Virus record (IMG/VR): IMGVR_UViG_3300027887_000007 | Location: 32,001-96,000 of that record | Source: a virus | DNA length: 64,000 bases | Strand: one strand, 5' to 3' | Part shown: positions 2,320-23,711 of the stretch, piece by piece | Layout of the letters: every line of letters starts with the position of its first letter | How positions within the stretch are numbered: position 1 is the stretch's first letter | Made by a program: the position numbers and the translations under genes | Notes under the pieces: generated by a model | What the model was told of the DNA's origin: nothing | The model's input: only the letters and a program-made list of their open reading frames with translations | Database searches by the model: none

Positions 2320-5300
2320 CTACATTGGAGGGGGAGAAGGCAGTGCGTTCTCTTGGCTGGCCGGGACAGCTTCATCTTCCGGCCATTTCAGGGAAGGCGC
2401 AAGCCTGAGTTCTTCCTCTTTCAGCTTTTCGAGTTCATGTCCTATCTGATCCTGCGTGAGCCCCTTGGCGCGGCCCGCCTTTATGGCGTCTGCTGCCTTC
2501 AAGGCCGATCGGGCCATGGCCAGCATGGACAGATAATAGGCGTCGATGTCCTTCCGCTTCCGCTCGGGCGTAGCCTCCGGCCTCCTAGAGTTGATAACCA
2601 TCCTCACTTGGCCATGGTACAGGCGGATGATTTCTCCTGCCGCTTTCAGGGTAGCGTACTCTGCCCACTCGTCGTCAGTAAGTTGTGGAGCGGACACGCT
2701 GCCGGGATTCTTTATGCCCTCACGGAAGCTCTGGTACCTCATCTCGAGGCGCTGTAACCGCTTCTGTAGCTTCTGTAGACTGACCAGTCCCCCGCTGGGG
2801 TACCTTACTCCAAAAGTGCGGGCAAGGCTAACGTCTACCATCTTGGGCGTGGGATCGGTTGGCCCTGAGTCGGGAATGAGGCGGTCGACCACCTCTCGCG
2901 TCACGATGCGGCCGGCCCCCGCCGTGTAACCGAACATGAGGTTTTCCAGCTTCACCGGACTGACCCGGAAGTCGAAGATATCCTCACCGAAGACCTTCGT
3001 CATCTCATGGTATATCTTGGCGATCGCTTTCGACGTCGTGACGGCAGCCTTCGACGTGTACCATTCAGCGCGATCCTCCGGCTCAAGGAGCTGCATGTGC
3101 GGAGTTTCAATCATCCGACCGGTAAAGAAGCTGTGGTTGAAGTAGTTCTCGAGTAGCGGCATGATGCCCGTCGCCTGGGCGAACGGGACGGCCGGTAGGA
3201 CCTGAGTAAATGTATTAGTGAGGAACTCGTCAATCGCGCTTTTGTCCCGACGGTGGATCCACTCGCACATGCGCTCTGCGGTGTTGCAGAAGACATAGCC
3301 CCATAGGAACGGCTTTGGAATCGGAACGTACGGCGTTACTTTGTACAGGCTCGTTCCCTTGGTGGGAAAGAGCCAGCACGAATCCTTCAGCCACCACGGC
3401 AGCTCTTGGTACTTTTCGTCGTCCTTATTTACCGACCATAACAGGACTGAGATAAGGGCCAGCGCAGAGCCTTTGATGGCAGACTCATATGGCCGCTCCT
3501 TGATGGTTCGTCCGAACTTGTCAATGTCCTGTACCGCGGCATTCCAGAACGCATGGGTCATGGAAATCGAGAGCATCTTAGCTCCCATGCGACTGTAGTC
3601 TAAGGTCGCCTCGCGTGACTCAAGGGCGGCTTCCCTTATTGGCATACCCTTGTCCCTAGCCAGCTTGTACACCGCGACTCTGGTCATTTCCTCAGAAAGC
3701 TCGGAGAGAACCCGTAAGGAATCAATCCACTTTCTCGGCTTTATCGCCGTAAGGATGGGGTGGGTCACTAGGTCGGTCAACTGCTGCCTGATGTGATCCC
3801 TGTCTAGAGAAATCATGGCGGCGTGAGCCCCACCGCCACGGATCCATTCATGATACAGATCATCACGCTTGAAGACGTGCCACAGCCCCATCAGGGAGTG
3901 CCATCCCGGGACAAATCCAAGGGGATGCTTTTTGGAGTAAAGACTGGTCTGCATGAATGCAGTCGCGGCGTCCCGAAGTATGTTCTTCGGCGTGAACTCC
4001 GGGTTGATTCCGGTCGCTCCCAGTCGAAGGATCTTCGCCGGAACAGCGAGGACCCTCATAAGGACGTTCACCTCTTCAACGTCTAGACCTTGCACAGCGT
4101 TGTACAGCTCCGGGTTAAGCTGAAGCAACTTAACCTTTCCTCGTACGTGGACCGTTATGATGTTCTCTTTTGGAGAGGGCGCCTTGATCGGCCTGAAGAC
4201 GGTCGCAATCGCATCGAGGTCAATGTCCGGATCGGACAGGTTAAACCCAGCCGCCTCGAGGGCGCCGCGTATCTCCGAGAGCGTGAACGAGGTTGGGCGC
4301 ATGTCAGGCGGAACCGGCTCCGCAACCCAGCCGGCACCATCCAGTTGAGACAGACTGTAGAGTGCTTGGGCTACTCTGTTCCGGTCTGCGAGGTTGATCA
4401 TCGTGTACGTGTTCTTGATGATCGTCTCAAGCGGATCGAGAATTGGAAGCCAAGATCCAGTAAACTTTTTCAAGCTTCCCGGTTGCCACAAGTTCCCGAC
4501 CCCTTCTCCGGCCATCCCCTTTGAGCCACCGGATTTTTCCCCGATGCCGGCCTCGTAGAGCCGATGGAACGGAACGTAGAACTTGTTCATCTTCTTGATC
4601 TTCTCGTACGGACCGGGATGATTCGGGTCATAGCTTCTCTCAAGCATCCCGCTATCTGCGTAGTACCTGAGCAGGCGATCCTGATAGTCGTACATCCCTT
4701 GGAGGGCGTTCCATATCATCGCCGCCTCAGGAGTAATCGGCTGTAGCGTTCTGGGATCAAAGCCCTGAAGCTGAAGACTAGACCTAGCTTCATCCAGCGT
4801 GATGCCGACTTCTCTCCCTTGCAGTCCCTTTTTCTCTAACGTGCGAAGGGCGATGGCACAAATGCGAAGGTCGTCCAGCCTGTCTCGGACAGGCTCCAGA
4901 ATAGCCCGGAATCCGTCGCCGGTAGGTGATAGGTTTATGGGATCAAATGTGTCTACGTTGAGGAACTGGTCGGCTTTTGCTACCCAGCCAGCCCGCAGCC
5001 TAGCCAGAAGGTGGGGATCCTCTACCTTTAGGTCTGCCAGTTTTTTACCGGCCTCCTTCTCGATTCTCTTAACTACCTTGTTTAGCGGATTGAGATGATT
5101 GATAACCTTCGTGTACAGTCCGCTCCACCAGTTGGTCTCGTAGATAGGGGCATCGAAAGAGATGTGGGCGAGGATTTTAGCCGACGCCGGCTGCGCTGCC
5201 CAGCGAATGAAATCGTCTCGCGCCGTGGTAAGAGCCTTCTTTACATCTGGATTTAGGTCGAGCGTCCGCTCAAAGAACTGAGTGAAGGATGGCGCCGAGG

Positions 5301-8300
5301 CCCTCGCCACTGGATTCTGTGTCACCCACAGCCTAACGTACTCGGCAAACCCTTCGGGAATCTTGGATCCGCCGGCGCGTGGCTTGGTCGCCAGCGGCTC
5401 CAGCTCGGTTGCGAAGGGTGCGAGCGCGGAGTAGTTCAAGTCCCCCTTGGAGAGACCCCACAATAGCTTGTTGATGTGATGCCCGGCCTCATGGAAGGCG
5501 ACGTTCAGGGGTCCGAGGTCTCCCGGCTTTTCACCGACGCCGCCAAGTTTCTTCCGCAGGCGTATGACCTCGGCGCGTGGCTTGTAGATCCCCAGCGCCT
5601 TCATCCTGAATCGGCCGAACCTCATTGGTACGTTCAGTGCCTTAGTCAGGTCCTTGAGGATCTTGTGCTTCGTCACAAGGTCCTTGCGGCTTAGCTTCTG
5701 CGGGTTGGGACCCGGCTGGAAGGCAGTCGAGCCAGCGACGGGCGGCAGGACCGGTGGAGTCGACGCCATCGCCGAGGGCGGCGGCAGTAGTGGGACGGTC
5801 GTCGCCCCGCTCACGGGACCTTCCTCGAGCGAGAGCGTCGGGCCGTTCGGGTCGCTGATTCCCTCTTTGCCCGTGATCTGGTCAAGCTCCTGCTGCATCC
5901 TTAATAGATGCGGCATGTATGCGTTCGCTTCGATCTTGGCCTGCACCTCGTCGTACTTCCGGCTCTCAAGGATGTGGTTCTTTACCTCTGTGGTCACATC
6001 CAGAACCGTGTTTCCCTCTAGGAGCCACTGGTCGAGATCGTTGGTCTGGATCCAGTTGAGTAGGCGTTGGGCCATGATCGGCGCCTTGTGAACCATGCGC
6101 TGATCTGACACGTCTCCTATTCCGTCGATGATCCGCTTCGCCGACTCCATGGCCTGCTCGACCCAGAACTGGGCGCCCTTGGCAGCCTGGAAGTTATCCG
6201 TCGGCGGCTCCATTTCAAGGCCGAGGTCGATGCTCTTCTTGCCGTCTCCTTGGTCGTACGGCATCAGTGGGGACGGACCGCTACCGCCCCCAGCTGATCC
6301 CGGCGGGGTCGTGGGATCGGCCGTACCAGTCGAGATGACCCTGTCCGCTGGGTACTTCTCGATGATCTTGTCCAAGAGCTTCGGGCCGTCGTTCTCGTCG
6401 AGTGGGATGAAAGCCCGGGGCCGCATAGATCCTCCGGGGGTCTTGATAACCTCGACGATGGCGCCCCACTCGCGCAGCTGCGCCACCAGAGATTCCTTGT
6501 AGGCGCGGCTCATGTTGATCTCCATCCGTCGTTCGCCGTGGATGGGATCACACATGTAAATCTGCCAGTTATTCGTGAGCTGGACGTTCGCGCCGGAGCG
6601 GATCATGTGGAAGAGAGAAGTGCCGGTCTCGGCCTTCAGCTCTGTCCCAAGGCCTAGCCTCTGCTTGAGAGCGGTGATCTCGTTGGCCTGTACTTGGAAC
6701 CCGATTATTCCACTACCGTCCTTCAGGATCGCCCGAACAACCCGCACATGACGGAGTCCGTTATCTCCCATGATCTTGTCATAGACCGGGAAGATGGCGC
6801 CTGTGACCATGTAGATAGGCGCCCGGAACGTCTTAGGGATTGAGGCGAGCTCCATGTTCCAAAGTGTCCGCGCCCGCTCGATGCCCCACAGTGGGACCGT
6901 GATCCTGCCAAGCAACGGCGGCGCCTCGCCCTCCATCCTCTCCACCGCTTCTCGCTCTTCAAGCGAACGAGGGGGTTTGGGCAAGCCCTGAGCGGCCCGC
7001 TTCTCTTCGTGTTCGATGATCTCGTAATACCGAGTTTCATCCTTGGGATTAGACCAACGGATCGGTGCTTTCTGGTTGGGCGCATTCGGATCCTGCGCCA
7101 CTCTCAATGCGCCCGGCGCCGGCTCGATGTCCTCCTTGGCATAGTTCTTTTGGAACTCTTCCAGCGGGACCCGTTCCCTGCGGAACTTCACGCTACGAAG
7201 ATCGACATAGCGAGACCCGTCCTGAGGATCAATCCAAGTGTAGGCTGCGTAAATCATGCCGCTGCGCTTGTTGGTGTAGAACCCCAACATGCCAGCTGAC
7301 CGCGGGAGATCCTCGAACTGCTGTCTGGGCGACTCGAAACTTCCCTCCATTTCGACGAGCTGAGTCTCCGCTCCGGAGCGAGGGTCGGTGTAAAGATGCT
7401 CTGCCCCTTTAATGTCGATCTCGGTGGCGCGGATCTTGGATACGCCCTCGTCGAACCGTCCAGCTTCCTTTGCTGCCTGCACTAGGCGGGTGTAGGTGGC
7501 GTAGAAGTAATCGAACACCGCGTTTTGGACGGTGACCGGAAGGACCATGATCCGGTTAAGGAAGTTCTCCGGGTTTCTCCCGGCGGTCGGACGAAGGTGA
7601 AGTTTGCCCTGCTTGTCCTTTCGGACATAACCCAGCTTCGTCAGAATCTCCTGACCGCTCATGTCGGGATGGTAGAAATTCCCCGCCATGAGGTCGGCTA
7701 CCGTGTGCATACAGGCAGCCTTGCCGTAAGCATCCGTGAAATCTTCGATGTTGAAGAGTGACCCGGCCAAAGCCTCGCGGTGTCCTTGGGTGAAGGCGCC
7801 GAGGCTCGCCAGCCTTCTTGATACGGCATTGATCAGCCGCTCTTGCCCGCGAACATTCGTCCGCACAAGATAGATCATCGGTGCAGACGCTTGGTTGGAT
7901 CGGTGGGCGCGGCCGAAGAACTGCATCTGTTGATCGGCGGACCACGACAGTTGGGCGCAGAACATGACGCGGCGTTTCTTGTTCACTGCCGCCCTTGATG
8001 CGTGAGCGCTGATCCCTGCGTTCCCAGCCGCAGTGATGACCAGTACGTCTGTCTCGCCCTTCTGGAAGCGGCGCAGCTCCCAGTTGTTCTTCGTGTCGCC
8101 CTTCGTCAGCTTCAGTCCGTCCGGTTTGACCGATACGTGCTGCCCGTTCTCAAGCCTATGTTCTCTCCCCGAGATTTCCGAGATGCGCGACCATCCGCCG
8201 AAGTGCTGGCCGATCAGGTCGATTGGATTGTCGGGGAGAACGAGGCTATCGCAGAGAGCGAGAAGCTCTTGCTGCTTTTCCACGTTAGCCTGGTTCTGCT

Positions 8301-11300: not shown

Positions 11301-14300
11301 CTTCCTTGACGGAATGCTCTCTGTAGAAATGGGCTCCAAGCAGAACGAGGTTTTTCCTCGTAGCCGGATCAAGACTGCTTATGTGACCGGGTCGACTTCC
11401 TCCCATGTCGGCAATGGAGGCCAATCCGGATGAGTCTCCTCCCTGTACTCCCGTATCCATTCCCAGTACTGCTTCGGGTCCTCCCCCTGATCTTTCATCC
11501 ATTGCAGAAAGGACTTCAGGTCTGGCATGTACCAGGCGGGGGACCCCGTCAGATGACCCAATCTTGCCAAGCAGATCGCCCGTCGCTCCCCGCGGGGCAG
11601 AGAGGAGATCGAAATATCGTCGAAACGCTGTGGTGGCCGCATATCCGTTAGCCTTGAAGTGTGCGGTTAAGATGCCTCTCCACTTGGTCTCTTCTGGAAC
11701 CAAGGATGTCCGAATGTCCTGCATGAATGCGGCAAAATCCTTTTCGTGATTCCAGTGTACCGTGTGGACAAGCTCATGTTCGATTAAGGTAGAAAGGATC
11801 CTAGTGCAGTGGACGGTGATCGCCTCGTCGCGGGACAGCAGTCCACTCTTTTCAAAATGGGTGCCGGCATGAACTAGGTTGTGCAGGTTAAGCAATATGA
11901 GGTATGGCTTGGACGGATCGTGATCTTCCCCAAAAGCCTTTAGGTCGCCATGGAATATGATCCCGTTGTAACTCGATCCCAGACCGTATCCGTGGAACTT
12001 GGCCTTCATGATCCTGTCGGCATGATCCGGATGCAGGACGGCCGTTCGCTTCTGAAGCTCCTCGAAACAAGCGGCCGTCAACTCGATTGTCTTTTGCACA
12101 ATCGGATCGCTGGATATCGCCTTCACTACATCGGGCGGCAGCTGATCCTCGTTTGAGTCGACTACCTTGAACCGGGTTGACCCGACGTTGTAACCCTTGT
12201 AGACGATGTCGTCAGTCTTTTGCCGTTCCGCTGCGGCGGCTTTGACGATGAGTGTATTTTTTATCCACTCGAAGACCAGAGCATCCGTCGACTTTGAGAA
12301 GTCGTTCCGGTTCATCGCCAGCGGATAGACCAGATCCTTATGGGCCGGATCCGCTTTTGGGTGAATGTCGATGACAAGTTCTGGAGGAAGGTCTAGGTCC
12401 TCGTCAAGGCGGTAAGTTTTCTCGAACGTAGAGAACCCGTTAACCAGAGTATGGACGTTAACGTACCCGACCTTTTTGTGTACGCCGGGTTGGTAGTATA
12501 TGTCTCCAGAAAAGTTGCGGTCCCCGATCTCTGAAAGCTTAGTCCACTCTCCGAATTCCGCAGGGATTACCGGAGACTCGTTGAATAAAAAGTTGATGTC
12601 GAACTCTGGCAGCCGATTTCTGCCAAGCCAGTCTTTACACCATTGCTTCAGCAGGGCCGGGTAGGGAGACGGTTTGTTTAGTGTAATCTCGATCTCTGTC
12701 CCTGCCTTACGCTTGGTTGTGGGGACAACCGAATTCAGAAGGAATCCCTTAGTCTGGAAATCATCCCCTGTTCCCTCGAACCAAGTCTCTTCCCACCGTC
12801 TCGTCTCGGGATTGAAGTTGACGCTTGAAACCCGAATCGTATCTGCGGATCCGTAGATGGCGACTTTGGCAATTCCGAATCCTCCAGAACTATTCTCGAG
12901 GACTTCTCCGTTTTCATCGAACTTCAGGGACGCGAAAGGCTCTACAAAGAACGTACCCATCGTCGCCTTCGACATGCCAATGCCGTTGTCGACTATTTTT
13001 ATCGTTGGTTTCTGTCCTCTTTCGGCTTTGACAGTTACCCCTATCGTTCCCTTTCTTCCATCCCTGATGCCCCTAAGAGCGTCGACGGAGTTCTGGAGCA
13101 TCTCGCGCAACGCGATCTCGGTAAGGTCTGACCCCTCGTAGGTTTTGACTCCTAGGATGTACTGGGCTCTGCCGTCCATCTTCTGGACTGCCCACTCCCG
13201 GCCCTGAGCATCCTTGACGATCTCCATCGTCGCTCTGGGCGGGAGGTAGCCTTGGTCGCGCATCCACTCGAATGCGTCCTTGACAGCCTTGGCGTCTGGT
13301 AGGGCGCCGGGCGGTTTTGTGCCGAATGCCCCTTTCAGTTTGGCGAGGTCGTCGCTTCCGAGCCCGCCAGTGAGTACCTTCTTCAGGTCCTCGCCCTTTA
13401 CCTCCTCGGTCGGAGGAGTGGTAGGCGGCGGCGTAATCTCCGGGCCTTTCTTCTCCTCCGTCGGTGGAGGTGGAGTTATCGTTGTCTTTTTCCGCTTCTT
13501 CAGGATCGGGCCGCGGTTCTTCTTTACGATCTCCGAGTCCTGAAGATTGAAATGGGCGATGTGTTTTTCGATAAGCTCGTCGGCCCCTTGGTGCAGCTTC
13601 CAGTCCTTTTTGTTGTCATACTGCTTGCTTTTGTCGTACAAGGCCTGAAGGAGAATCTCGGCCTCGTGTCCGGACGCGACAAAGTAGTGGCCTTTCTCTA
13701 AGTCCACCTCGAAGGTGTCGAGGAAGGTCGGTCTATCTGGGTCCTCGTTCTCCTCCCGAATGGCCAAGAGGACTTCTTCCTGCTCGGTAGACTCGTACTC
13801 AATTTCCTCTGTCGGGCCCTCGGGGGTGGTCGTTTCCGGCGGCTTCGTCCCGACGCCGGCCTGTCCGAGGATTTCGTTCAGCGTCTCCTGTAGGCTTTCC
13901 CTGACCTCGTCGGCCTCCTTCGGTGTCGAGAATGGTCCCGCGGATTCGACGCCACTGGAATCGTAGACCCTGAAGTTTGCTTCGTTGTCTTCGTGGACCG
14001 TGTACAGCGAGATGTTTCCGATTTCCGTGCTGGGCTGAGCCACAATCTCTCCCGCAGCAAAGTCGTAAGCTTGCTGCGGCGTCATCATGTGGATCTGGGC
14101 TTCCGTGAAACCCAGAACCCTCAGACGGTTCTGGACGGCCCAAGAGTTGTGCAGTTCCTCCGGGGCATCGGGGAGGTCTGGGAGCGGATGGCCCGGCTTT
14201 GGCTTGGTGTTAACAGGGGTGGTCGGGCGCTGCTCACCCTCCGGCTTTGACTCTCGGTAGGCGTCGAGAACCTTCTTCAGTTTTCTCGGAGAGATCCCGT

Positions 14301-17300
14301 ATGAAGAAAACACGTTGCTCAGGAACTCGAATAGGGAACTCCCCGTCGGTTCGTGTCCGTGCCATGGGTTTGCGACGTACTGCTCCCATGCTTCCTGCTG
14401 TGCCTTAGGAAATCGCTTTGCTGCAAATTGAGCCAGCTCCTCGAATCCAAGTGGAAGGTCAAAGCCTAGGAAATTGCCGTCCCTCAGTATCGGGTACTCA
14501 TCTAGCACCTGCTGTGGAACCTCGCGCCCGATGCTGAGAGCCTCTTCCACAGCCTTGAAGTGGTGGTCGTCGTAGAGCTCGTTGTGAAACTGAGCCTCTT
14601 CAACCGCAAGGGCGAAGTTCCTGACGGCCTGATGGGCGACGTCCTTCGTCAGCGCGAGCTCGTCCGGGCTAATGTCACGCTCGTCAATGGCCGGATCGTT
14701 GAAGAGCTGATCGACCTTGTTGTGCCACAGCTCGAACCACTCGGCGAGCTCGATTTCGCTATCAAGCAGGCCTTCTCTTACCCAACCTCCCAGCAGGTGC
14801 ATCTCATCTTCCATGCTGGTGATCGTGTTACGGTACTTGAACGTGTAGAGACCGCGATTCTCCGGCCGCAGGAACTTCGGAGCGACCTGGTGGACTAGCG
14901 TCATGCGAAGATCGTCGAGCCCACGCTCGAGGACAGTGGGATCCTCGTGCTGCGGGTAGTCGCTCGCGTCGTACTGCTCCCTAGTCATCTGGTGAGGCTC
15001 TAGCTTCTGACTGGGCGGGGCGTTCTCGGACTCAGGCGGCGGTCCCGGCAGACCTCCCTGCGCCGCCTCCGAAACCATTGCGGCTATCTCTTCGGCGGTT
15101 CCTACGTGGATCCTGATCGGTGTGAGCGGTTTCCCCTCTTTCGCGTTGAACTCGTTACGGAATGCTTGGACCTGACGCGGGACGTCCCACCTCGGAACGA
15201 CCGCATGGCCGGCTACGGTCATCGTCCCGTCAGGATTGACCGCCCATACGATTACGCCTGCGTCGGCGTCGGCGTCCTTGGGGGCAACGATTCCGAGGAG
15301 CTCATAGAGCTTCCCGGCGTCAAGCATCGAACTAATGTCGTCCTCGCTGTACGAGTCCGATCGGTAGACGAGGAATCCGTCCTCGACTTTCGGATGGTCG
15401 GAGATATCAACCAACCGAAGCGGGGGCATGATGTTCCACAGCTCCAGAGAATCCTTCTCCTCGTCGGTTAGCTTCGCCATCGTGGATGCCGCGATAAACA
15501 CGGCATTGCGGCTGCCGTTGGCAAGGTTAGCCAACTGCAGTTTGATGGTGTCGGGATCCTCGGGCAACGTCGGCTGAGTAGCCGTCGGCGGCGCCTCCGT
15601 CGTTTCGGGCGGCGGCGGCTCCCCAACCGGAGCGCCCTCGATTGGCTTGCGAACTATCTTCGACTTGGCGGCTAGGTACCCAAGGTTGTCGTTCGCCTGG
15701 AATACATACTTCGCCTCTCCGGTTGTTGGGTCGTAGATCAGCTCGCCGTTCTGGTCGTGATCGTATCCATAGATAGCGCCGGCGAAGGCTCCGATCTTTC
15801 CGTTCTCCAGAACGTGATAGAGCGACTGACCGACTCTCTGGTATTTCAGCCCATCTGTTGTAACGAGCTGGTCGCCTTCTTCCATGACCGCAAGGATCGT
15901 ATGACCCTGAGCGACGATCTCTCCCTCTGCCTGCATCCGGGCCGACTCGTCACCGGCTAGTGGCTGGGCTTCCATGATCTCTGTCATGCGACGATCCAGC
16001 CACGCCTGTACTTCCATTTCATCAAGACCGTGAAGCATCCCGACTAGGACAGAATCAGCCGGCGTTGCCGCCTCTCTAGTCTCTGGCGGCTTGGTTAAGC
16101 CGGGTTCCTGCGGAGCAACCGTTTTAGGAAGGAGTCCCCGCTCTAGCCTCTCTACCTCAGAAAGCTCCAGCTGCGAGAATTCCTTGCCGAATAGCCGGCG
16201 CGAGATTCGATCCGGGTCGAGTCCAAGGCGACCCATGATCTCGCTGACTCTGGCTACGGCAGCGGTCATTACCGCATCGCCCGGGTACGGTGTATTCGCC
16301 GAAGTCGGAGGAACGAAGGTTCCGTAGATCGCCCGGTAGGAACGCTCGATAGCCAAGAGAGCGCTCTCCGGCAATGTGCTGGAGTCTATCGAGGCCAGAA
16401 CCTCGGCCGGGATCGGGTTTCCTGTCTCGTCGAGGTGTGTCCCAATCTCCTGCGCGATCGTCAGTCTCAGGTTGGGATCCTTGTTGTCCCACCATTCAGC
16501 CGCAGCCTTGATCTGCTCATCGGAAGGACCACCGACCGGTTCATTCGGCTCGAGCTGCCTGCGGATCCAGTCGGAAGGACCGGCCGCATCCATTAGGTCA
16601 AGGACCTCCTGCGGAACCGGGGAGACAGGATTGTCCCTGTACTGCGACAAGGTGTCGGAGGCTTGGCCAAGCCATTCGATCTGTGATTCGACGCGGCTGC
16701 GCTCCGAGGCTCTGTCAATGTTTAAGATCAGGTCCTCGCGTTCCCGGCCGATGCGAGCCACGGCGAAGTCGATCTGATTCGGCGTTGGAACTGGGGGCGC
16801 CGGCTCAGGCGGAACACCCTCTACTGGGGGGACGCCGCCTTCTACTGGGGGGACGCCGCCTTCTACTGGAGGGACGCCGCCTTCTACTGGAGGAACACCG
16901 CCTTCTACTGGAGGAACACCGCCTTCTACTGGAGGAACACCGCCTTCAGGCGCAGCCGGAGGGGGAGTTTCGGCGGGAGGTGTCGGAGCCGGTACAGTAG
17001 GGAGAACTCCCTTGTGCTTGTCGAGTACCCCGACCAGCACTTGCCGCAGCTCGAGGATGTTCCACTGCGCGATCTCTTCATCCTTGAAGCCGGAGTACCG
17101 GAGGACCCGCATCACCTCGTCCGTCACTCCATGAGGGTTGCCAGTCTCCGCTTTGGCCGGGGCCCGGCGCATCCCACGTTCGAGTGCGTATATGGCGCCC
17201 TTTACCGCAGTCGGAACCGAGAACGCCGCGATCTCCTGTCCGAACTGATACAGGAAGTCGTCGATCGCTTCTGCTTTGGCAGACATGGGATCCGTGAAGA

Positions 17301-20178
17301 TCCGGATCATGGGAGGAGCCTTGTCCCCCTCGCGCAGCTGCCCAATGAGTGGGAGGTTGATCTCCCGCAGGACATCCCCCATCCGCTCTTCAAACCACTC
17401 ACCGATCAGCCCGTGCCAAGCCATCTTCTGCTTGAACTTGTTGAAGAAATCGTCGAGCGTCCTAGTGGGGTCGCGTTTGAGCCAGTCGTAGACGATGGCT
17501 GACTTCAACGCGCCAAGCTTGTTGATCAGGGGCAGCTTGGCGAACTGCTTTACCCAAGGCTCGATGGCTTCTTTGAGTGCCTTCTGAGCGTATTCACCGG
17601 GAAGGCCCATGCGCTCAGTCCAGTTCTCAATGACTTGCTGAGGTAGAGCCTTTACGAGGGCCGGCATGAAGTCGTCGTCCCATCGCTCCAACTGGTCGCG
17701 CAATCTCTGAAGGTTGCTGGGGTCGCCTATTTGGGTGGGCAGTTGGTTCTCAAGAGTCTGCTGGAGTAGCCTCTGCGGCATGACAAGCGTATGCACGGTA
17801 GCCGCCGCAGCGGAAGTAACGGCGGTTCTCGCGGCCTTCATCGCCGCTTTCCCTGTGACCTTCTCGCCGAGTATCGTTGCTTCCTTCTTGGCTAGATTCT
17901 CAACCGCTCTCCCGGCTACCTTCTTGGCAACCCTCTCCATGGCCTGGTCGAGCAGAAGCTTCGTCCCCGTGTACGCCCCCCCGGTAGTAGCGAACTCCAG
18001 CGCGTAAGCAGGCATGTTGGCCGCAATCTCAGCGGCGCCATAGAGGAAGGTCGTGTCTCTTCGGCCCTCCTCCTGTTCCTGTAGAAATCCTTCTATGACT
18101 TGAATGTCATGCGGGGTCTCCCGGTTGTCTCTGATCGCACGGGCGGCCTCGAGGATTTCCAGAGAGTGTGCGGCATCGAAGAGGGGTCCGACAAACGGGG
18201 TCAGCGTCAATGCCTTGCGGGACGGCTCGAACCTGCTCAGGTTCTCGTTGTACTCGAACATCTCCGCTGCGAATGTCTTCAGATCCTTCGGCCCGGTCCC
18301 CTTAGCTTCAGCGTGAGCCCTTTTAATCGCAGCGTCGATACGGCTCTGCCTTCTAGCTTCCGACTCGAACTGCTTTGGATCCATGTCCCCCAGAAGGTTC
18401 TCGATCTGGACGCGATCCCGATTGGCAGTCAACACCGCATCTTCGGGTTTCTGCGTCAGGTCCATCTGTACCGTCTTACCCGGCACAACCCGCTGCGGGG
18501 CTTTCATGGCTTCGGCTAGGATGTCCCTGACGTTCCCCTGCTGAGCCCGCATCATAATTGGGATCATGCGGGGATCCGTAGAAGAAGCCAGCTGTATCCC
18601 TTGCGTGGCGCCGAATGCCTGTAGGTCGTCGATCTCCTTCTTCTTCTGCCGAGCCCGATCCGACACTTCTTTGAGGTCCGCCACGAGGGCGCTGTACCTC
18701 TTCATTTCAGAATCGTTGGTCTGATCCGGACCGTCTGGAAACTCCTTGGCGAGCTGTTCGTCTGACAGCTTCATCTCGTCGACTATTGCCGTGAGCTCCT
18801 GATAGGTGGAAATCAGCTGGCCTGCCAGATCGGTCTCAAGCGTCGGCGGTCCAAGAATGGACTTCCCGGTAAGAATCTCTGCCGGTTTCGAGATGTCGAT
18901 CTTCCCGCCCTCGAACCACGGCTCCCCGGGCTTTACCGGGGCGACGGGAGCCCTGCCCGGAGGTGCCATGTCAGAGGCAAGGGGGGGCTGCTGCGTCATG
19001 TCTACGGCCGGTGGTTGGACCTCCGGCGCGGTCTGTGGGGCCGGCGGCGCTGCTGGAGGAGTACCCGCGGCGACTTGCGGTGGCGCGAAAGGAGTCGGGG
19101 GCTGCGCCAGTCCGGGCTGCGGGACTGGAGGAGGCTCTGTCTTTGCGAGAGACCCGCCCTCAGCTGCCGTTCCGGGGCCAGCGATGCTGTACTCCGGAAG
19201 CTTTCCGCCCTTCATGACGTAGTTCCAGGCGTTCGTGTACGCCCTGCCGCCCTCCACGGGGTCGTGGACCTGTCCCTTGCGCCCGATGTACAGCAAAAGC
19301 TCTAGGCCCTCGAGGCCGAGCTTCTTCCCCTTTTCGTACCAAGGCTTCAGATACTTCAGTGACTTCGGGATGACGTAGTCAGGATCGAACTGCAGGTCGA
19401 TGGGCTCGCCCGTCCCCATGCCACCCGGTTCGTTCCACTGGAAAAGACCGCGGCTAGTTCGACCTTTCCCGCCGTCGTTCTGTCTGACCGCTTTCGGGTT
19501 TCCACCAGACTCGCCCATGATGATTGCTCTGGTGATCTCCCTCGGGATTCCGTACTGATCCGAGTATCGGTCGGCCTTTTCCCAGACCGTCTCTTCCTTG
19601 GGCTGCGTTACTGCGCCGGGGATCTTCTGCCTCTGAACCGACGGTACGAACGGTACCGGCGCCCCGAGCTGAGGCGGCGGCGTAAGGGAAGGCTCTTCCT
19701 GCGGTTTAGCGGCAGGAGCCGGCTTTGGAAGAGCTTCCTTGGGTGTCTCTGTGGTTGGGGATCCCAGCGGCCCTGTGACGTCTGGCAACTTGGATTCGAT
19801 CCACTGCCCCCACCCCTTGATCCGCTCGCCAAGGCTCTTTTCGGGCGGTGCCTTTGGCTTGTGTTCCTCGTCCCACTTGGCGTAATACTCTTTCCACGAG
19901 TTGTAGTCTCTGCCAAGTACGTCGTCCTGCACGTCCTTGGGAGCCTTGGCGAACCGCTCAGGTTCGATGATATTTAGCAGGTGCCGCCTAGCCCCCGGCG
20001 TCAACCGATGGAACTCCTCGTTCAGCAGGAGATCCCTTCCCCGCTTGTACTTCTCACGGAAAAGCCTGTTAGCCTCCTCTCGAGATTCCTGTGGCTTTAC
20101 CGACTGGACGCCGCTGGAGAACGTACTGTCTTCCTGCGAGGGATCTAGCTCCTGCGGGTCAACCGGCTGCGTAGCCAT
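2320..20178 (-). CDS. Giant (5952 aa) polyvalent ejected/internal virion protein, DarB-like: SLT transglycosylase, GHKL ATPase, zincin, N6-adenine DNA methyltransferase, strawberry-notch SF2 helicase, second zincin, LPD38-like C-terminus
   Basis: IMGESGGNP..SRGLFQ (~19500); REMLQNSVDA/DNGIGM/GGFGIAK (~13100-12870); HELVH (~11770); QQFSTPP/LEPSAGTG/NPPF (~10850-10570); GDGTGVGKGR/DESH/SATG/QFFGRAHRSNQ (~9550-7890); HEAGH..EGFAEY (~5490-5345); C-terminal YQELPWWLKD..PIPKPF..LLENYFNHSFFTGR. Follows the ejection-protein genes. Confidence 0.88.
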   Translation of the reverse strand: MATQPVDPQELDPSQEDSTFSSGVQSVKPQESREEANRLFREKYKRGRDLLLNEEFHRLTPGARRHLLNIIEPERFAKAPKDVQDDVLGRDYNSWKEYYAKWDEEHKPKAPPEKSLGERIKGWGQWIESKLPDVTGPLGSPTTETPKEALPKPAPAAKPQEEPSLTPPPQLGAPVPFVPSVQRQKIPGAVTQPKEETVWEKADRYSDQYGIPREITRAIIMGESGGNPKAVRQNDGGKGRTSRGLFQWNEPGGMGTGEPIDLQFDPDYVIPKSLKYLKPWYEKGKKLGLEGLELLLYIGRKGQVHDPVEGGRAYTNAWNYVMKGGKLPEYSIAGPGTAAEGGSLAKTEPPPVPQPGLAQPPTPFAPPQVAAGTPPAAPPAPQTAPEVQPPAVDMTQQPPLASDMAPPGRAPVAPVKPGEPWFEGGKIDISKPAEILTGKSILGPPTLETDLAGQLISTYQELTAIVDEMKLSDEQLAKEFPDGPDQTNDSEMKRYSALVADLKEVSDRARQKKKEIDDLQAFGATQGIQLASSTDPRMIPIMMRAQQGNVRDILAEAMKAPQRVVPGKTVQMDLTQKPEDAVLTANRDRVQIENLLGDMDPKQFESEARRQSRIDAAIKRAHAEAKGTGPKDLKTFAAEMFEYNENLSRFEPSRKALTLTPFVGPLFDAAHSLEILEAARAIRDNRETPHDIQVIEGFLQEQEEGRRDTTFLYGAAEIAANMPAYALEFATTGGAYTGTKLLLDQAMERVAKKVAGRAVENLAKKEATILGEKVTGKAAMKAARTAVTSAAAATVHTLVMPQRLLQQTLENQLPTQIGDPSNLQRLRDQLERWDDDFMPALVKALPQQVIENWTERMGLPGEYAQKALKEAIEPWVKQFAKLPLINKLGALKSAIVYDWLKRDPTRTLDDFFNKFKQKMAWHGLIGEWFEERMGDVLREINLPLIGQLREGDKAPPMIRIFTDPMSAKAEAIDDFLYQFGQEIAAFSVPTAVKGAIYALERGMRRAPAKAETGNPHGVTDEVMRVLRYSGFKDEEIAQWNILELRQVLVGVLDKHKGVLPTVPAPTPPAETPPPAAPEGGVPPVEGGVPPVEGGVPPVEGGVPPVEGGVPPVEGGVPPVEGVPPEPAPPVPTPNQIDFAVARIGREREDLILNIDRASERSRVESQIEWLGQASDTLSQYRDNPVSPVPQEVLDLMDAAGPSDWIRRQLEPNEPVGGPSDEQIKAAAEWWDNKDPNLRLTIAQEIGTHLDETGNPIPAEVLASIDSSTLPESALLAIERSYRAIYGTFVPPTSANTPYPGDAVMTAAVARVSEIMGRLGLDPDRISRRLFGKEFSQLELSEVERLERGLLPKTVAPQEPGLTKPPETREAATPADSVLVGMLHGLDEMEVQAWLDRRMTEIMEAQPLAGDESARMQAEGEIVAQGHTILAVMEEGDQLVTTDGLKYQRVGQSLYHVLENGKIGAFAGAIYGYDHDQNGELIYDPTTGEAKYVFQANDNLGYLAAKSKIVRKPIEGAPVGEPPPPETTEAPPTATQPTLPEDPDTIKLQLANLANGSRNAVFIAASTMAKLTDEEKDSLELWNIMPPLRLVDISDHPKVEDGFLVYRSDSYSEDDISSMLDAGKLYELLGIVAPKDADADAGVIVWAVNPDGTMTVAGHAVVPRWDVPRQVQAFRNEFNAKEGKPLTPIRIHVGTAEEIAAMVSEAAQGGLPGPPPESENAPPSQKLEPHQMTREQYDASDYPQHEDPTVLERGLDDLRMTLVHQVAPKFLRPENRGLYTFKYRNTITSMEDEMHLLGGWVREGLLDSEIELAEWFELWHNKVDQLFNDPAIDERDISPDELALTKDVAHQAVRNFALAVEEAQFHNELYDDHHFKAVEEALSIGREVPQQVLDEYPILRDGNFLGFDLPLGFEELAQFAAKRFPKAQQEAWEQYVANPWHGHEPTGSSLFEFLSNVFSSYGISPRKLKKVLDAYRESKPEGEQRPTTPVNTKPKPGHPLPDLPDAPEELHNSWAVQNRLRVLGFTEAQIHMMTPQQAYDFAAGEIVAQPSTEIGNISLYTVHEDNEANFRVYDSSGVESAGPFSTPKEADEVRESLQETLNEILGQAGVGTKPPETTTPEGPTEEIEYESTEQEEVLLAIREENEDPDRPTFLDTFEVDLEKGHYFVASGHEAEILLQALYDKSKQYDNKKDWKLHQGADELIEKHIAHFNLQDSEIVKKNRGPILKKRKKTTITPPPPTEEKKGPEITPPPTTPPTEEVKGEDLKKVLTGGLGSDDLAKLKGAFGTKPPGALPDAKAVKDAFEWMRDQGYLPPRATMEIVKDAQGREWAVQKMDGRAQYILGVKTYEGSDLTEIALREMLQNSVDALRGIRDGRKGTIGVTVKAERGQKPTIKIVDNGIGMSKATMGTFFVEPFASLKFDENGEVLENSSGGFGIAKVAIYGSADTIRVSSVNFNPETRRWEETWFEGTGDDFQTKGFLLNSVVPTTKRKAGTEIEITLNKPSPYPALLKQWCKDWLGRNRLPEFDINFLFNESPVIPAEFGEWTKLSEIGDRNFSGDIYYQPGVHKKVGYVNVHTLVNGFSTFEKTYRLDEDLDLPPELVIDIHPKADPAHKDLVYPLAMNRNDFSKSTDALVFEWIKNTLIVKAAAAERQKTDDIVYKGYNVGSTRFKVVDSNEDQLPPDVVKAISSDPIVQKTIELTAACFEELQKRTAVLHPDHADRIMKAKFHGYGLGSSYNGIIFHGDLKAFGEDHDPSKPYLILLNLHNLVHAGTHFEKSGLLSRDEAITVHCTRILSTLIEHELVHTVHWNHEKDFAAFMQDIRTSLVPEETKWRGILTAHFKANGYAATTAFRRYFDLLSAPRGATGDLLGKIGSSDGVPRLVHARPEVLSAMDERSGGGPEAVLGMDTGVQGGDSSGLASIADMGGSRPGHISSLDPATRKNLVLLGAHFYREHSVKEEWAEAVIANSAEWVRPYLDQVYQMVENYARIMGFRRPEAPPPPPPETQTKQEQYRNLVAKVRAAILAGESFNNRKLQAMANEVFGGQRGEGKYELRDMYDAFEAGVSAAIEMSNIVDFGNPIETLMALMELQSRLAVQSDRTMEQIDLQQFSTPPAQAFVAAYALGIASGPMSALEPSAGTGMLATMLRIRGAQVTANEIDERRLQMLQIRGFTTTDVDALHINTTGTAVSDLRPNLVLMNPPFSAGPTGKNTAHGARHIMQALQKLSPGGRLVAIIGEGMARGKDKFVGWWGEVDQKYTVRADIGLAGKFYQKMGTSFPQRLLVIDKIGPLPKGAEIVTGEECSPSEAAVLLAKIAEDDIYGRTTERSQPPSLPPPPTPPTPPGEPPTGEGTGGGSGGGGGRGGTSRGGRPGGRGGASGGGGGGVHAPGTRGEGNPPAPPRPPGPGEPGPEDTEGVGPRGGNEPPVEPQPPPADIKIVTTDRKMGEEESAVYVRYQVRKALYEGVTPHPAPLIESGPQASVDFPDVKVKLNLPEDVFHPPPVPEGEEPLGLSDAQLECVTFAVQALNDLTKDGRHYGFWIGDGTGVGKGREIAGIIYHYLRETGNKRALWLTATSQLLESAQRDINRVMVPMKTIHLNDPRYADEAPVTDDGILFTQYSTASIGWGSDPKRFRQIVDFLTPRTKKILEAGDFWTNPETGLSERIPSSMVGKEVEVKGDPKDFDGVIVFDESHKMKNAIPDDGSHSGSTGGTNAGKMGGELSKVFPKARIVYVSATGATKPSNMGYMDRLMLWGAEGSPFKTFDDFTEAMRAGGLQSMEMLARDLKAVGLFISRSLSYGGPDAEPWEKVEYGYVDHQLNEFQVEQYNNAASLFSELVQAMEWAEKNAHQRHDQTRFSVYYSMQQRFFLQLMTTYQIGSMFEKVDECLAQGMAPIINILSTNETLMEEIVTERKAAGKSLDDIDLGPRQMVRRFIEEYFPTEEFDVSRDPMTGKLEHIPTGEQNQANVEKQQELLALCDSLVLPDNPIDLIGQHFGGWSRISEISGREHRLENGQHVSVKPDGLKLTKGDTKNNWELRRFQKGETDVLVITAAGNAGISAHASRAAVNKKRRVMFCAQLSWSADQQMQFFGRAHRSNQASAPMIYLVRTNVRGQERLINAVSRRLASLGAFTQGHREALAGSLFNIEDFTDAYGKAACMHTVADLMAGNFYHPDMSGQEILTKLGYVRKDKQGKLHLRPTAGRNPENFLNRIMVLPVTVQNAVFDYFYATYTRLVQAAKEAGRFDEGVSKIRATEIDIKGAEHLYTDPRSGAETQLVEMEGSFESPRQQFEDLPRSAGMLGFYTNKRSGMIYAAYTWIDPQDGSRYVDLRSVKFRRERVPLEEFQKNYAKEDIEPAPGALRVAQDPNAPNQKAPIRWSNPKDETRYYEIIEHEEKRAAQGLPKPPRSLEEREAVERMEGEAPPLLGRITVPLWGIERARTLWNMELASIPKTFRAPIYMVTGAIFPVYDKIMGDNGLRHVRVVRAILKDGSGIIGFQVQANEITALKQRLGLGTELKAETGTSLFHMIRSGANVQLTNNWQIYMCDPIHGERRMEINMSRAYKESLVAQLREWGAIVEVIKTPGGSMRPRAFIPLDENDGPKLLDKIIEKYPADRVISTGTADPTTPPGSAGGGSGPSPLMPYDQGDGKKSIDLGLEMEPPTDNFQAAKGAQFWVEQAMESAKRIIDGIGDVSDQRMVHKAPIMAQRLLNWIQTNDLDQWLLEGNTVLDVTTEVKNHILESRKYDEVQAKIEANAYMPHLLRMQQELDQITGKEGISDPNGPTLSLEEGPVSGATTVPLLPPPSAMASTPPVLPPVAGSTAFQPGPNPQKLSRKDLVTKHKILKDLTKALNVPMRFGRFRMKALGIYKPRAEVIRLRKKLGGVGEKPGDLGPLNVAFHEAGHHINKLLWGLSKGDLNYSALAPFATELEPLATKPRAGGSKIPEGFAEYVRLWVTQNPVARASAPSFTQFFERTLDLNPDVKKALTTARDDFIRWAAQPASAKILAHISFDAPIYETNWWSGLYTKVINHLNPLNKVVKRIEKEAGKKLADLKVEDPHLLARLRAGWVAKADQFLNVDTFDPINLSPTGDGFRAILEPVRDRLDDLRICAIALRTLEKKGLQGREVGITLDEARSSLQLQGFDPRTLQPITPEAAMIWNALQGMYDYQDRLLRYYADSGMLERSYDPNHPGPYEKIKKMNKFYVPFHRLYEAGIGEKSGGSKGMAGEGVGNLWQPGSLKKFTGSWLPILDPLETIIKNTYTMINLADRNRVAQALYSLSQLDGAGWVAEPVPPDMRPTSFTLSEIRGALEAAGFNLSDPDIDLDAIATVFRPIKAPSPKENIITVHVRGKVKLLQLNPELYNAVQGLDVEEVNVLMRVLAVPAKILRLGATGINPEFTPKNILRDAATAFMQTSLYSKKHPLGFVPGWHSLMGLWHVFKRDDLYHEWIRGGGAHAAMISLDRDHIRQQLTDLVTHPILTAIKPRKWIDSLRVLSELSEEMTRVAVYKLARDKGMPIREAALESREATLDYSRMGAKMLSISMTHAFWNAAVQDIDKFGRTIKERPYESAIKGSALALISVLLWSVNKDDEKYQELPWWLKDSCWLFPTKGTSLYKVTPYVPIPKPFLWGYVFCNTAERMCEWIHRRDKSAIDEFLTNTFTQVLPAVPFAQATGIMPLLENYFNHSFFTGRMIETPHMQLLEPEDRAEWYTSKAAVTTSKAIAKIYHEMTKVFGEDIFDFRVSPVKLENLMFGYTAGAGRIVTREVVDRLIPDSGPTDPTPKMVDVSLARTFGVRYPSGGLVSLQKLQKRLQRLEMRYQSFREGIKNPGSVSAPQLTDDEWAEYATLKAAGEIIRLYHGQVRMVINSRRPEATPERKRKDIDAYYLSMLAMARSALKAADAIKAGRAKGLTQDQIGHELEKLKEEELRLAPSLKWPEDEAVPASQENALPSPPPM
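9873..10217 (-). CDS. Candidate nested gene (114 aa, +1 frame) inside the methyltransferase-helicase linker of the giant protein
   Basis: GAGGA RBS then ATG GCC GTA CAA CTG. Globular-looking Leu/Glu-rich sequence with genome-like codons (CTC/CTG/GAG/GTG), while the main frame is low-complexity Pro/Gly with A/T-ending codons. Confidence 0.65.
   Translation of the reverse strand: MAVQLSEANRQASLLLQHLQLPPGNHPLVKALVAALEVEEGEEVLLEADDLGGEEGLQAVGEVAFTRPELVEREILRLLPDLPVPVNPDPRTLKVWGLEVATNLLSNLNLLPPT
11379..11528 (-). CDS. Candidate nested gene (49 aa, +1 frame) inside the zincin-methyltransferase linker of the giant protein
   Basis: MPDLKSFLQWMKDQGEDPKQYWEWIREYREETHPDWPPLPTWEEVDPVT. Hand count: G/C third positions about 34/49 in this frame versus about 19/49 in the main frame. 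Weak RBS. Confidence 0.5.
   Translation of the reverse strand: MPDLKSFLQWMKDQGEDPKQYWEWIREYREETHPDWPPLPTWEEVDPVT
16811..16947 (-). repeat. 21-nt coding tandem repeat encoding (GGVPPVE)x6
   Basis: Repeated ccttctactggaggaacaccg / ccttctactggggggacgccg units on the + strand, with no spacers. Confidence 0.9.
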
Positions 20179-21967: not shown

Positions 21968-21969
21968 AA

Positions 21970-22314
21970 CTACCTCCTGCTGGCCTTCCGGCTCGGCTTA
22001 CGGGCTTTTGTCAGGCGTTGGACCTTTGAGACGATTTCGGACGGGATAACAACCTCTCCCTTGTGCAGCTTGTACGCCCCGGTCTTGTTGATGCGTCCGC
22101 CCTTGCGTTTTTCTGGGAGAGGTTCCCGAACCACCCGAGAAGGAATCACGGGACCCTCTTGACCCTCCGGCAAGGGCTCCATGGCTTCCTGAGAGTATCT
22201 ACTACCACCCTTGCCGATAGCCTTTTTGAAGCGATCGACGAGGCTCCCGCCCTTTTCTTTTGCCGCGAGACCGGCCGCGGCGCCGCCGGCTAGTCCACCG
22301 AGAAATGCGCCCAT
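21970..22314 (-). CDS. Small ejection-region protein with glycine zipper and KGG..TG..LHKGE.V motif
   Basis: MGAFLGGLAGGAAAG; RKGGRINKTGAYKLHKGEVVIP; basic tail; paralogous to 44041-44376. Confidence 0.65.
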   Translation of the reverse strand: MGAFLGGLAGGAAAGLAAKEKGGSLVDRFKKAIGKGGSRYSQEAMEPLPEGQEGPVIPSRVVREPLPEKRKGGRINKTGAYKLHKGEVVIPSEIVSKVQRLTKARKPSRKASRR

Positions 22315-22332
22315 AACGCCTCCGATATTGGA

Positions 22333-22848: not shown

Positions 22849-22850
22849 GG

Positions 22851-23456: not shown

Positions 23457-23484
23457 ATCTCCCCTCCGGCAAAATCCCGTCACT

Positions 23485-23505
23485 ACCGTAACATATTGAA
23501 GTCAA
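23485..23505 (-). promoter_or_regulatory. Putative promoter motif TTGACT-N9-TACGGT
   Basis: AT-rich intergenic gap upstream of the GNAT/ejection genes; same architecture at 44014 and 62809. Confidence 0.4.
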
Positions 23506-23705
23506 TCTACTATCTCGAACAGACCGCTGCTCAAATAGGTCTGGACGTCCTCCCGCTTGACCCTCACCCTCTCACCGTAAGTGCCGAACATCCGGCCCGG
23601 CCGGTCGGGCTGTGGGGAGAAGCTGAAAGGACGAAAGGCCTTGTAAGCCATCGTCACGATGTCAGGAAGGTCTGTAAGCCTCTTCTTCTTTCCGCAGCAT
23701 CCCAT
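23502..23705 (-). CDS. Hypothetical protein (67 aa)
   Basis: MGCCGKKKR start; fills the gap in the operon. Confidence 0.6.
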   Translation of the reverse strand: MGCCGKKKRLTDLPDIVTMAYKAFRPFSFSPQPDRPGRMFGTYGERVRVKREDVQTYLSSGLFEIVD

Positions 23706-23711
23706 GTCGTT

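Follow-up and report, generated by a model that had tools for sequence, protein, structure and literature searches.

A gene at positions 2320..20178 (minus strand) of the window, by which we mean the whole 64,000-nt stretch that was analysed (positions 32,001-96,000 of IMGVR_UViG_3300027887_000007), encodes a protein of 5952 aa and 658.5 kDa that belongs to an established class, the phage polyvalent or "DarB-like" proteins (Iyer et al. 2017). We consider it probable that this protein stands in the place of the largest ejection (internal virion) protein in a short-tailed phage, and by analogy with other members of the class it is most likely packed in the capsid and injected with the DNA. The class itself is already well described; particular to this giant are a module joining a GHKL ATPase to a zincin and a near-orphan acidic stretch of about 1,100 residues. 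The gene and its parts are numbered within the window.

The gene and its ejection cassette

The gene is carried by a 110-kb uncultured phage and forms a single intact open reading frame of 5,952 codons with an ATG start, preceded at 8 nt by a GGAGAG ribosome-binding site that overlaps with the stop codon ending the gene before it. From 5952 open codons in DNA of 58% GC we infer that a chance origin of the reading frame is excluded. The original prediction of one 5952-aa chain is thus borne out by the intact frame, the ATG and the ribosome-binding site, and each motif that it had listed was found in the order given, including HELVH at residue 2801, NPPF at 3200, GVGKG at 3545, DESH at 3689, HEAGH at 4896 and EGFAE at 4942. 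All the catalytic motifs are intact. The domain reading attached to these motifs was right overall, although the lytic transglycosylase (SLT) and the first HExxH domain (WLM-like) score below their family cut-offs. No internal duplications were found among the segments of the protein. Sequence searches of the PDB returned weak matches to the HSP90 N-domain only, the N-terminal 3000 aa had no match in phage records, and a search of IMG/VR with the N-terminus found no relatives.

A T7-like ejection cassette ends with the giant, its largest gene. Gene calls place the upstream part of this cassette, in the same operon, at 20192..29113 (minus strand), comprising two adaptors of SU10 type, a protein of 1252 aa, small ORFs, a GNAT-like protein of 210 aa and proteins of 171, 114 and 591 aa; portal, capsid and fibre genes share the strand and operon too, and a receiver-domain gene lies downstream of the giant. 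The order adaptor, 1252 aa, GNAT-like, 171, 591 and giant parallels gp49-gp44 of Pelagibacter phage HTVC034P, where tail tubular A/B are followed by an acetyltransferase, an internal virion protein B-like protein, a 580-aa protein and gp44. It also fits VvAW1 gp03-gp01, in which gp01 comes after a 'DNA ejection' gene. To the cassettes of HTVC034P, Bcep22 and N4 the neighbours of the giant are alike in order and size only, with no sequence similarity, and the 1252-aa and 591-aa proteins had no sequence relatives in deposited phages.

The two ends of the protein and their relatives

The N-terminal 134 residues (19777..20178, minus strand, as are all the parts below) are possibly an assembly or targeting element; residues 40-142 are retained in five giant relatives. 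They are followed by a probable lytic transglycosylase at residues 189-334 (19177..19614), where residues 204-283 reach 19.1 bits against SLT, under the Pfam cut-off of 21.3. Three orthologs all keep this region's catalytic Glu-Ser and its GL[FY]Q motif unchanged, and there is a weak profile link to one SLT-annotated relative. Further along, a helical region (residues 427-1051; 17026..18900) is common to the giants P0003 and P0009 and to gp3 of Bacteroides phage BS-TP4, and its matches in a language-model atlas were to unnamed viral clusters only. The glycine/alanine-rich helices that had been predicted are present as a weakly hydrophobic stretch at residues ~700-800, conserved in three other giants. 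An (EGGVPPV)n linker then follows, encoded by a 21-nt tandem repeat of 6.1 copies (16820..16947).

At the other end, a second zincin with the motifs HEAGH...EGFAE (residues 4830-5020; 5119..5691) leads into a basic, conserved terminal region (residues 5021-5930; 2389..5118) that contains LPD38 (PF18857) at residues 5587-5761 (E 6e-26, 92-94 bits against a cut-off of 27). The model of this C-terminal module covers 1101 residues with a pLDDT of 69. In it the second zincin resembles the lethal-factor/M34 fold (Z 9.2, rmsd 3.5 A over 133 residues), and a Pro-Pro endopeptidase of the M34 family gave Z 6.6. The fold modelling that had been proposed as a check supported the second zincin as lethal-factor-type, but gave a pLDDT of only ~30 for residues 1734-2229. 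The last ~1,100 residues, zincin plus LPD38, behave as a conserved unit that forms the extreme C-terminus in 44 of 44 shorter homologs. The minimal homologs consist of the module alone or of a lysozyme joined to it, and some homologs have no zincin.

The module profile matches the C-termini of Bcep22 gp75 (3e-29) and VvAW1 gp01 (1e-135), and HTVC034P gp44 matches with an E-value of 2e-79. It found no match in the PDB. We also considered a likeness to the C-terminus of the N4 virion RNA polymerase, its encapsidation part, and rejected it as there was no match to the module profile; the resemblance to N4 is one of gene order only.

Because the same module ends Bcep22 gp75 and HTVC034P gp44, the latter in the slot of T7 gp16, we place the giant in the polyvalent class. 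It has in common with that class the assembly of unrelated enzymes in one chain (here SLT-like, GHKL, two zincins, methyltransferase and strawberry-notch helicase), zincin MPTases, a dyad of methyltransferase and SWI2/SNF2 helicase, LPD38, and a neighbourhood of late virion genes (PMC5512222). In the Bcep22-like podophages, Bcep22 gp75 (4602 aa) and the near-identical JC1 gp69 (4515 aa; LT-MTase-helicase-LPD38), which was detected in purified virions by mass spectrometry (PMC9144972), have a similar layout of N-terminal lytic transglycosylase, adenine methyltransferase, SF2 helicase and C-terminal LPD38. Their genes likewise close the virion module, behind those for a GNAT-type acetyltransferase and a virion protein of ~530-590 aa. 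However, homology to them is detectable in the C-terminal region only, their helicase is of the COG4646 and not the strawberry-notch type, and the giant lacks LPD3 while adding the GHKL-zincin module and ~1,100 orphan acidic residues. Less elaborate proteins carry the homologous module with little or no enzymatic cargo: HTVC034P gp44 (1229 aa) and VvAW1 gp01 (3640 aa), both in the same slot after internal-virion or ejection genes, and metagenomic lysozyme+LPD38 proteins of 1753 aa. Compared with these, the giant has its wall-lytic head and C-terminal module set apart by an insertion of ~4,500 residues. Another LPD38-bearing giant, similar by domain description, is phi24B gp47 (2811 aa, LPD5/LPD1/LPD38 + MuF-C), which mass-spectrometric proteomics showed to be abundant in virions and which does not appear in the cryo-EM map; it has been proposed as the encapsidated ejection protein (bioRxiv 10.64898/2026.04.10.717836). 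It is half the size of our protein, with no methyltransferase, helicase or GHKL domain reported.

T7 gp16 (internal virion protein D), which acts in the gp14-gp15-gp16 ejectosome (PMC8954989), has an N-terminal transglycosylase, for which the giant has a candidate counterpart in its sub-cut-off SLT, and it shares with the giant the position as largest and last cassette gene after the tail tubular genes. Its C-terminal part is expected in the cytoplasm with the DNA, and the C-terminal module of the giant is basic (pI 9.3). The giant is 4.5 times as long, however, has enzymes absent from T7 gp16, and its C-terminal module gave no sequence or fold match to it. The original prediction saw in the protein both an injected toolkit and an ejection conduit. 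Injection and ejection fit the published reading of the class, the position in the cassette and the homology of the C-terminal module to Bcep22 gp75. The conduit found no such backing: searches with the module by PDB profile, Foldseek and VIA (with a model of pLDDT 69) revealed no likeness to T7 gp15/gp16 or to further ejection proteins of solved structure, and neither a transmembrane-grade hydrophobic segment nor a predicted transmembrane helix was found in the giant.

The giant may be a polyprotein whose own two zincins cut Pro-rich linkers before or during assembly, so that separate proteins, or only the end pieces, are packaged and injected. We regard this as possible though doubtful. The metal-binding and catalytic residues are intact in both zincin modules, the fold of the second is that of a family including a Pro-Pro endopeptidase, and about 12 Pro-rich linkers are rich in Pro-Pro bonds, with six VPPV repeats among them. 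MPTase-driven processing was moreover proposed by Iyer et al., and P1 DdrB is processed before packaging (PMC5512222). However, the N4 vRNAP, which also bears an MPTase, is packaged unprocessed (PMC5512222). JC1 gp69 was represented by 51 unique peptides, its size in the virion being unreported (PMC9144972). Within the linkers no cleavage motif clearly recurs, the one candidate being a weak TKPP[EG] that occurs three times, and the zincin is missing from some homologs of the module.

The enzymes and acidic segments in between

The core at residues 3008-5900 is common to 154 giant relatives that exchange their N-terminal cargo (e.g. GGDEF, His_Phos_1). It includes a DNA methyltransferase of N6-adenine type (residues 3020-3316; 10231..11121), recognised from motif I EPSAGTG, motif IV NPPF and a Pfam MTS match at residues 3137-3237. 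A Pro/Gly-rich linker (residues 3317-3444; 9847..10230) with a GC3 of 0.41 connects it to an SF2 helicase/translocase of strawberry-notch type (residues 3445-4619; 6322..9846), described as the rarer type among polyvalent proteins (PMC5512222). The helicase carries GVGKG and DESH, matches AAA_34 (E 1.5e-75) and Helicase_C_4 (E 1.3e-59), and has a conserved unnamed tail at residues 4436-4615.

P1 DarB, too, carries an adenine methyltransferase ahead of an SF2 helicase in a single chain. It travels in the virion and shields incoming DNA in cis against type I restriction (PMC5512222), and by this analogy a DarB-like role may be suggested for the pair in the giant. The DarB comparison of the original prediction is one of layout: a tblastn search with residues 3020-4619 against 50,697 phage records gave no match in Escherichia phage P1, and the helicase of DarB belongs to a different family. 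P1 is, in addition, a myovirus whose packaging depends on DarA/Hdf, partners for which we saw no counterparts here.

These are DNA enzymes, and together with the GHKL domain they could act on replicated DNA. PADLOC reported the methyltransferase alone as resembling a defence system (MADS mad2, 7e-9). It might thus be supposed that the giant is a late cytoplasmic enzyme complex, methylating or remodelling progeny DNA or attacking the host, that merely lies beside the structural genes. This seems to us improbable given that proteins detected in virions have such a wall-lytic N-terminal domain and C-terminal module, that the position of the gene is the one conserved for the largest ejection protein, and that LPD38 is confined to phage-type polyvalent proteins near virion genes (PMC5512222).

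Upstream of the core we found a GHKL ATPase with a transducer-like domain (residues ~2334-2611), followed by a zincin of HExxHx5H type (HELVH at 2801), the module spanning residues 2267-2982 (11233..13380). This module is common only to the giant and two other giant phage proteins, P0002 and P0006; searches for free-standing relatives gave two marginal matches. Its GC3 is below that of the rest of the gene. When the segment was scanned alone, HATPase_c matched residues 2356-2437 with 28.7 bits (cut-off 26.4), HATPase_c_3 reached 26.7 bits (cut-off 25), and in NCBIfam the region matched the HSP90 family (1.3e-9) and Topo VI-B (7e-6). The Bergerat-fold motifs (N box E..N..D, G1 DxGxG and G2 GGxG) are invariant in all three proteins (the giant being P0001), as are H2801, E2802, H2805 and H2811 of the metal site, and these motifs are kept although the proteins are only 33-41% identical. 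For the zincin, WLM at residues 2790-2847 scored 22.3 bits, under the cut-off of 26. With a model whose pLDDT is only 40-73 over the GHKL domain, the best 28 matches in VIA were all GHKL ATPases, and the likeness was strongest to Topo VI-B (Z 11.3 over 244 residues), followed by MutL (~10) and HSP90/MORC (~7.9). We did not find such a unit described for polyvalent proteins, and the text of Iyer et al. (PMC5512222) names no GHKL ATPase, with 0 occurrences of GHKL, histidine kinase or HSP90.

Between the linker repeat and this module lies the near-orphan acidic region (residues 1145-2229; 13492..16746), which is composed of four segments, at residues 1145-1503, 1545-1701, 1734-1977 and 2014-2229, of pI 4.4-4.7 with zero Cys, separated by Pro-rich linkers. 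The prediction had left about 1300 aa here unassigned, and residues 1145-2233 indeed gave no match in Pfam, PHROG, NCBIfam or the PDB and nothing usable in the language-model atlas. Among 1.84 billion representatives they match just four other proteins, while residues 1542-1710 are the only part of the region that recurs in five other giants. An AF2 model of residues 1734-2933, with only three sequences in the input, had a mean pLDDT of 36.7, and ~30 over residues 1734-2229, the part of the acidic region that was modelled.

We put forward, as a speculation with a small chance of being right, that the GHKL ATPase with its WLM/SprT-like zincin and the four acidic segments (pI ~4.5) are new injected effectors acting early, the segments for example as DNA mimics. 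The ATPase-zincin unit could be an ATP-driven DNA clamp that moves a DNA-dependent protease along the entering genome, removing or destroying DNA-bound defence proteins of the host, or it could be an HSP90-like built-in device for refolding a 660-kDa chain that passes the tail unfolded. That the giant is instead an architectural element of the capsid interior, a core or a pressure/packing body with enzyme-like relics, would suit its very large mass and the length of its helical and acidic stretches that match no family but is very improbable, as all the catalytic motifs are intact, those of the GHKL-zincin module are kept in three diverged proteins, and the core enzymes are conserved in ~100 relatives.

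Proposed course of infection and significance

On the preferred reading of an injected polyvalent protein, the giant would be synthesized late within the structural operon, for which the position, strand and coupled start are observed. A few copies would be packed in the capsid through the conserved ends, chiefly the ~1,100-residue zincin and LPD38 module. At infection the protein would leave through the tail at least partly unfolded, and its N-terminal transglycosylase would open the peptidoglycan as in T7 gp16. The remainder would enter the cytoplasm with the leading DNA, where the methyltransferase and the strawberry-notch translocase may blunt restriction on the entering genome in a DarB-like manner. 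Further early functions would come from the acidic segments and from the module of GHKL ATPase and zincin, and cleavage of the Pro-rich linkers by the two zincins may release parts of the chain.

Polyvalent proteins are the main route by which short-tailed phages deliver ready-made enzymes with their DNA, and to our knowledge almost none has been studied biochemically. The design is clear in this protein: a wall-cutting head and a conserved tail module of ~1,100 residues form a carrier, which also occurs alone in 35-kb phages, and the ~4,500 residues between them are exchangeable cargo. With 5,952 residues the giant exceeds Pavtok gp27 (5,007 residues), which was called the longest known phage protein by a 2021 paper, and its metagenomic relatives reach up to 7,325 residues. 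For early-infection or counter-defence activities, the rare GHKL-zincin unit and the orphan acidic segments offer concrete candidates.

Coding sequence and domains of the giant protein

The gene for the giant protein, a predicted phage polyvalent protein, is one unbroken ORF of 5952 codons (2320-20178, minus strand), beginning with ATG; a GGAGAG site 8 nt before this start shares bases with the preceding gene's stop codon. Its product has a mass of 658.5 kDa and a pI of 5.5. A motif scan found all of the motifs listed in the original prediction, in the order claimed: HELVH (residue 2801), NPPF (3200), GVGKG (3545), DESH (3689), HEAGH (4896) and EGFAE (4942), all encoded on the minus strand. 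At the level of domains, profiles supported the GHKL domain (HATPase_c, residues 2356-2437, 28.7 bits versus a Pfam cut-off of 26.4, with the segment scanned by itself), the methyltransferase (MTS-type profile match, 3137-3237), strawberry notch (AAA_34, 1.5e-75; Helicase_C_4, 1.3e-59) and LPD38 (5587-5761, 6e-26), whereas the SLT (204-283, 19.1 bits) and WLM (2790-2847, 22.3 bits) matches were under their Pfam cut-offs of 21.3 and 26.

About 12 Pro-rich linkers divide the chain into segments. The linker behind the N-terminal helical region contains a 21-nt tandem repeat (16820-16947, minus strand; 6.1 copies, 97% identity) coding for (EGGVPPV)n, and the near-perfect copies suggest that the repeat expanded recently and that the linker varies in length. 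The Pro/Gly linker between methyltransferase and helicase (9847-10230, minus strand) has a GC3 of 0.41 versus 0.70 for the whole gene, and a 117-aa ORF (9873-10226, likewise minus strand) lies inside this region in a different reading frame.

The C-terminal module and its virion relatives

The last ~1,100 residues, comprising the second zincin (4830-5020) and the LPD38-containing end, behave as a single unit. This C-module was found in 44 homologs of 600-1900 residues, always ending no more than a few residues from the C-terminus; the homolog P0132 (1113 aa) is nearly C-module only, and in 1753-aa proteins on ~34-kb contigs a phage lysozyme domain alone stands ahead of it. The motif HExGH...EG[FYW]AE is kept in most of these homologs, and because a few begin past the zincin, the latter is a separable subdomain. 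The module is basic (pI 9.3). Its model, built from 28 sequences, had a mean pLDDT of 69.4, rising to ~90 over the first 175 residues, which matched the lethal-factor-type (M34) zincin core with a Foldseek probability of ~1 over ~180 columns. Using VIA-align, the same subdomain gave Z 9.2 with the M34 type (rmsd 3.5 A over 133 residues) and Z 6.6 with a Pro-Pro endopeptidase of that family. The same lethal-factor-type affinity was noted for polyvalent-protein MPTases by Iyer et al., who defined the class in 2017 (PMC5512222). The remaining ~900 residues are mainly helical in the model; profile, Foldseek and VIA searches matched nothing specific in the PDB, and 82 predicted viral structures were matched at E <= 0.001, the named ones among the matches listed being mostly annotated as large polyvalent or LPD38-domain proteins; Escherichia phage PTXU04 and Ralstonia phage Alix are among the sources.

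By sequence, the C-module is homologous to virion proteins. Its profile matches the C-terminus of Bcep22 gp75 (3e-29), the pairwise alignment with the giant protein being confined to residues 5318-5763 of the latter. Directly upstream of gp75, Bcep22 encodes an acyltransferase as well as a virion protein of 532 aa. JC1 gp69 (4515 aa), 79% identical to gp75, was detected by 51 unique peptides in CsCl-purified virions and has the layout LT-like (80-192), MTase, helicase, LPD3, LPD38 (PMC9144972). VvAW1 gp01 (3640 aa, 'DarB-like') matches at 1e-135 and is preceded by a gene annotated 'DNA ejection'. Another LPD38 protein, gp47 of phi24B, is abundant in the virion but not visible by cryo-EM; its authors proposed it as the encapsidated ejection protein (bioRxiv 10.64898/2026.04.10.717836). 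The class of the giant protein already has cultured members confirmed by proteomics.

The source contig is single (110,207 bp) and carries phage genes throughout. The following genes all share the strand of the giant gene (minus): the portal (60902-62791), collagen-like fibres, the major head protein (40428-41402), two adjacent SU10-type adaptor paralogs (27791-29113; 213 and 226 aa; PF24175, 1.6e-10 and 2.2e-15) and, behind these, a 1252-aa protein without relatives found among deposited phages. From there to the giant gene follow small ORFs, a GNAT-like protein of 210 aa, and proteins of 171, 114 and 591 aa. This cassette has the gene order of Pelagibacter phage HTVC034P (tail tubular A and B, acetyltransferase, an internal virion protein B-like gene, a gene for 580 aa, gp44, tail fibre), which is in turn the gp11-gp17 order of T7, with gp44 (C-module match, E 2e-79) in the gp16 slot. 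Homologs of gp15 have mostly been tied to T7 via size and synteny, not sequence, and P22-type gp16 homologs keep synteny with little shared sequence; T7 gp16 itself has an N-terminal transglycosylase active in the periplasm and a C-terminal DNA-binding part that gets to the cytoplasm (PMC8954989).

The GNAT-type acetyltransferase of the cassette (22851-23483, minus strand), between nozzle and internal-protein genes, is also present in HTVC034P (gp47, 5261-5716) and Bcep22 (gp69, 6114-6545), with no sequence similarity detectable among the three past the fold family; it looks like a recurring yet unexplained member of ejection cassettes. On the other side, the giant gene is followed after 14 nt, in the same operon, by a gene for 187 aa (1742-2305, minus strand) with its own G-rich ribosome-binding site; the product has a receiver domain of the response-regulator type (PF00072, 33.6 bits). 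A stand-alone phage receiver closing a virion module is unusual.

A common core and a variable N-terminal half

Searching among proteins of 3,273-10,416 residues, we found 154 relatives, the longest of 7,325 residues. The size of the giant protein by itself is not unique: Bacteroides phage BS-TP4 gp3 has 5,391 residues. The giant is longer than Pavtok gp27 (5,007 aa), which a 2021 paper described as the longest phage protein then known. The conservation map shows two halves, a common core (~3008-5900) of methyltransferase, Sno helicase, an unnamed but conserved stretch, the second zincin and LPD38, and a variable N-terminal half. The methyltransferase-helicase part (3008-4300) is present in ~100 of the relatives and the C-terminal part (~4830-5800) in ~12-34. 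Few pieces of the N-terminal half recur: residues 1-345 in the homologs P0002 and P0006, 608-1018 in two others (P0003 and P0009), and 1542-1710 in five giants. Relatives carry different cargo there, such as GGDEF, His_Phos_1, ART, 2H and inteins.

The GHKL-zincin module (2264-3000) is common to the giant protein and only two others, P0002 (5366 aa, 41% identity) and P0006. In NCBIfam its GHKL segment scored best with the HSP90 family (1.3e-9), followed by Topo VI-B, MutL and HtpG. The model of residues 1734-2933, built from the three sequences at hand, failed, with a mean pLDDT of 36.7; even within it, residues ~2334-2611 align with two-domain GHL ATPases over ~240 positions (Topo VI-B Z 11.3; topo II, MutL and MLH1 ~10; HSP90 and MORC ~7.9), and the best 28 structure matches are all GHKL enzymes. 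Taken with the N, G1 and G2 boxes, which do not vary among the three proteins, and with the scores in Pfam and NCBIfam, this alignment makes assignment to GHKL sound at superfamily level. Also invariant in all three is the HExxHx5H site of the first zincin, whose spacing is that of WLM/Wss1-type zincins. GC (0.53-0.55) and GC3 (0.59-0.64, versus 0.70 for the whole gene) of the module (11233-13380, minus strand) are both clearly below those of its flanks, as would fit an origin separate from the rest of the gene. We found no description of the module in the literature on polyvalent or ejection proteins, and there is a modest chance that it is a new effector.

Beside this module, a near-orphan acidic region is the second particular feature of the protein. 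The original prediction left about 1300 aa ahead of the GHKL domain unassigned; residues 1145-2233 matched nothing in Pfam, PHROG, NCBIfam, PDB or the language-model atlas, and only four other proteins among 1.84 billion representatives, all giants and chiefly over 1486-1900. Unlike the basic C-module, each of its four segments is acidic (pI 4.4-4.7), and none contains cysteine; a search for internal duplications saw none. The segments may be effector domains, may mimic DNA or may serve as spacers.

A proposed route into the cell

The analysis establishes the position and coupling of the gene, a domain set with intact motifs, and a terminal carrier module homologous to virion proteins. The original prediction saw in the protein both an ejection conduit and an anti-defence toolkit. 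The conduit is the least supported part, because the chain has no transmembrane-grade segment (top hydrophobic 19-mers of 1.0-1.4) and fold searches of the modelled C-module detected no gp15/gp16-like fold. Probably a few copies are packaged in the virion and ejected in a partly unfolded state, partial unfolding having been argued necessary for very large ejection proteins (PMC8402733). The predicted transglycosylase would then open the wall, the zincins might cleave the Pro-rich linkers and, by analogy with DarB, the predicted methyltransferase and Sno translocase would work on the entering DNA.
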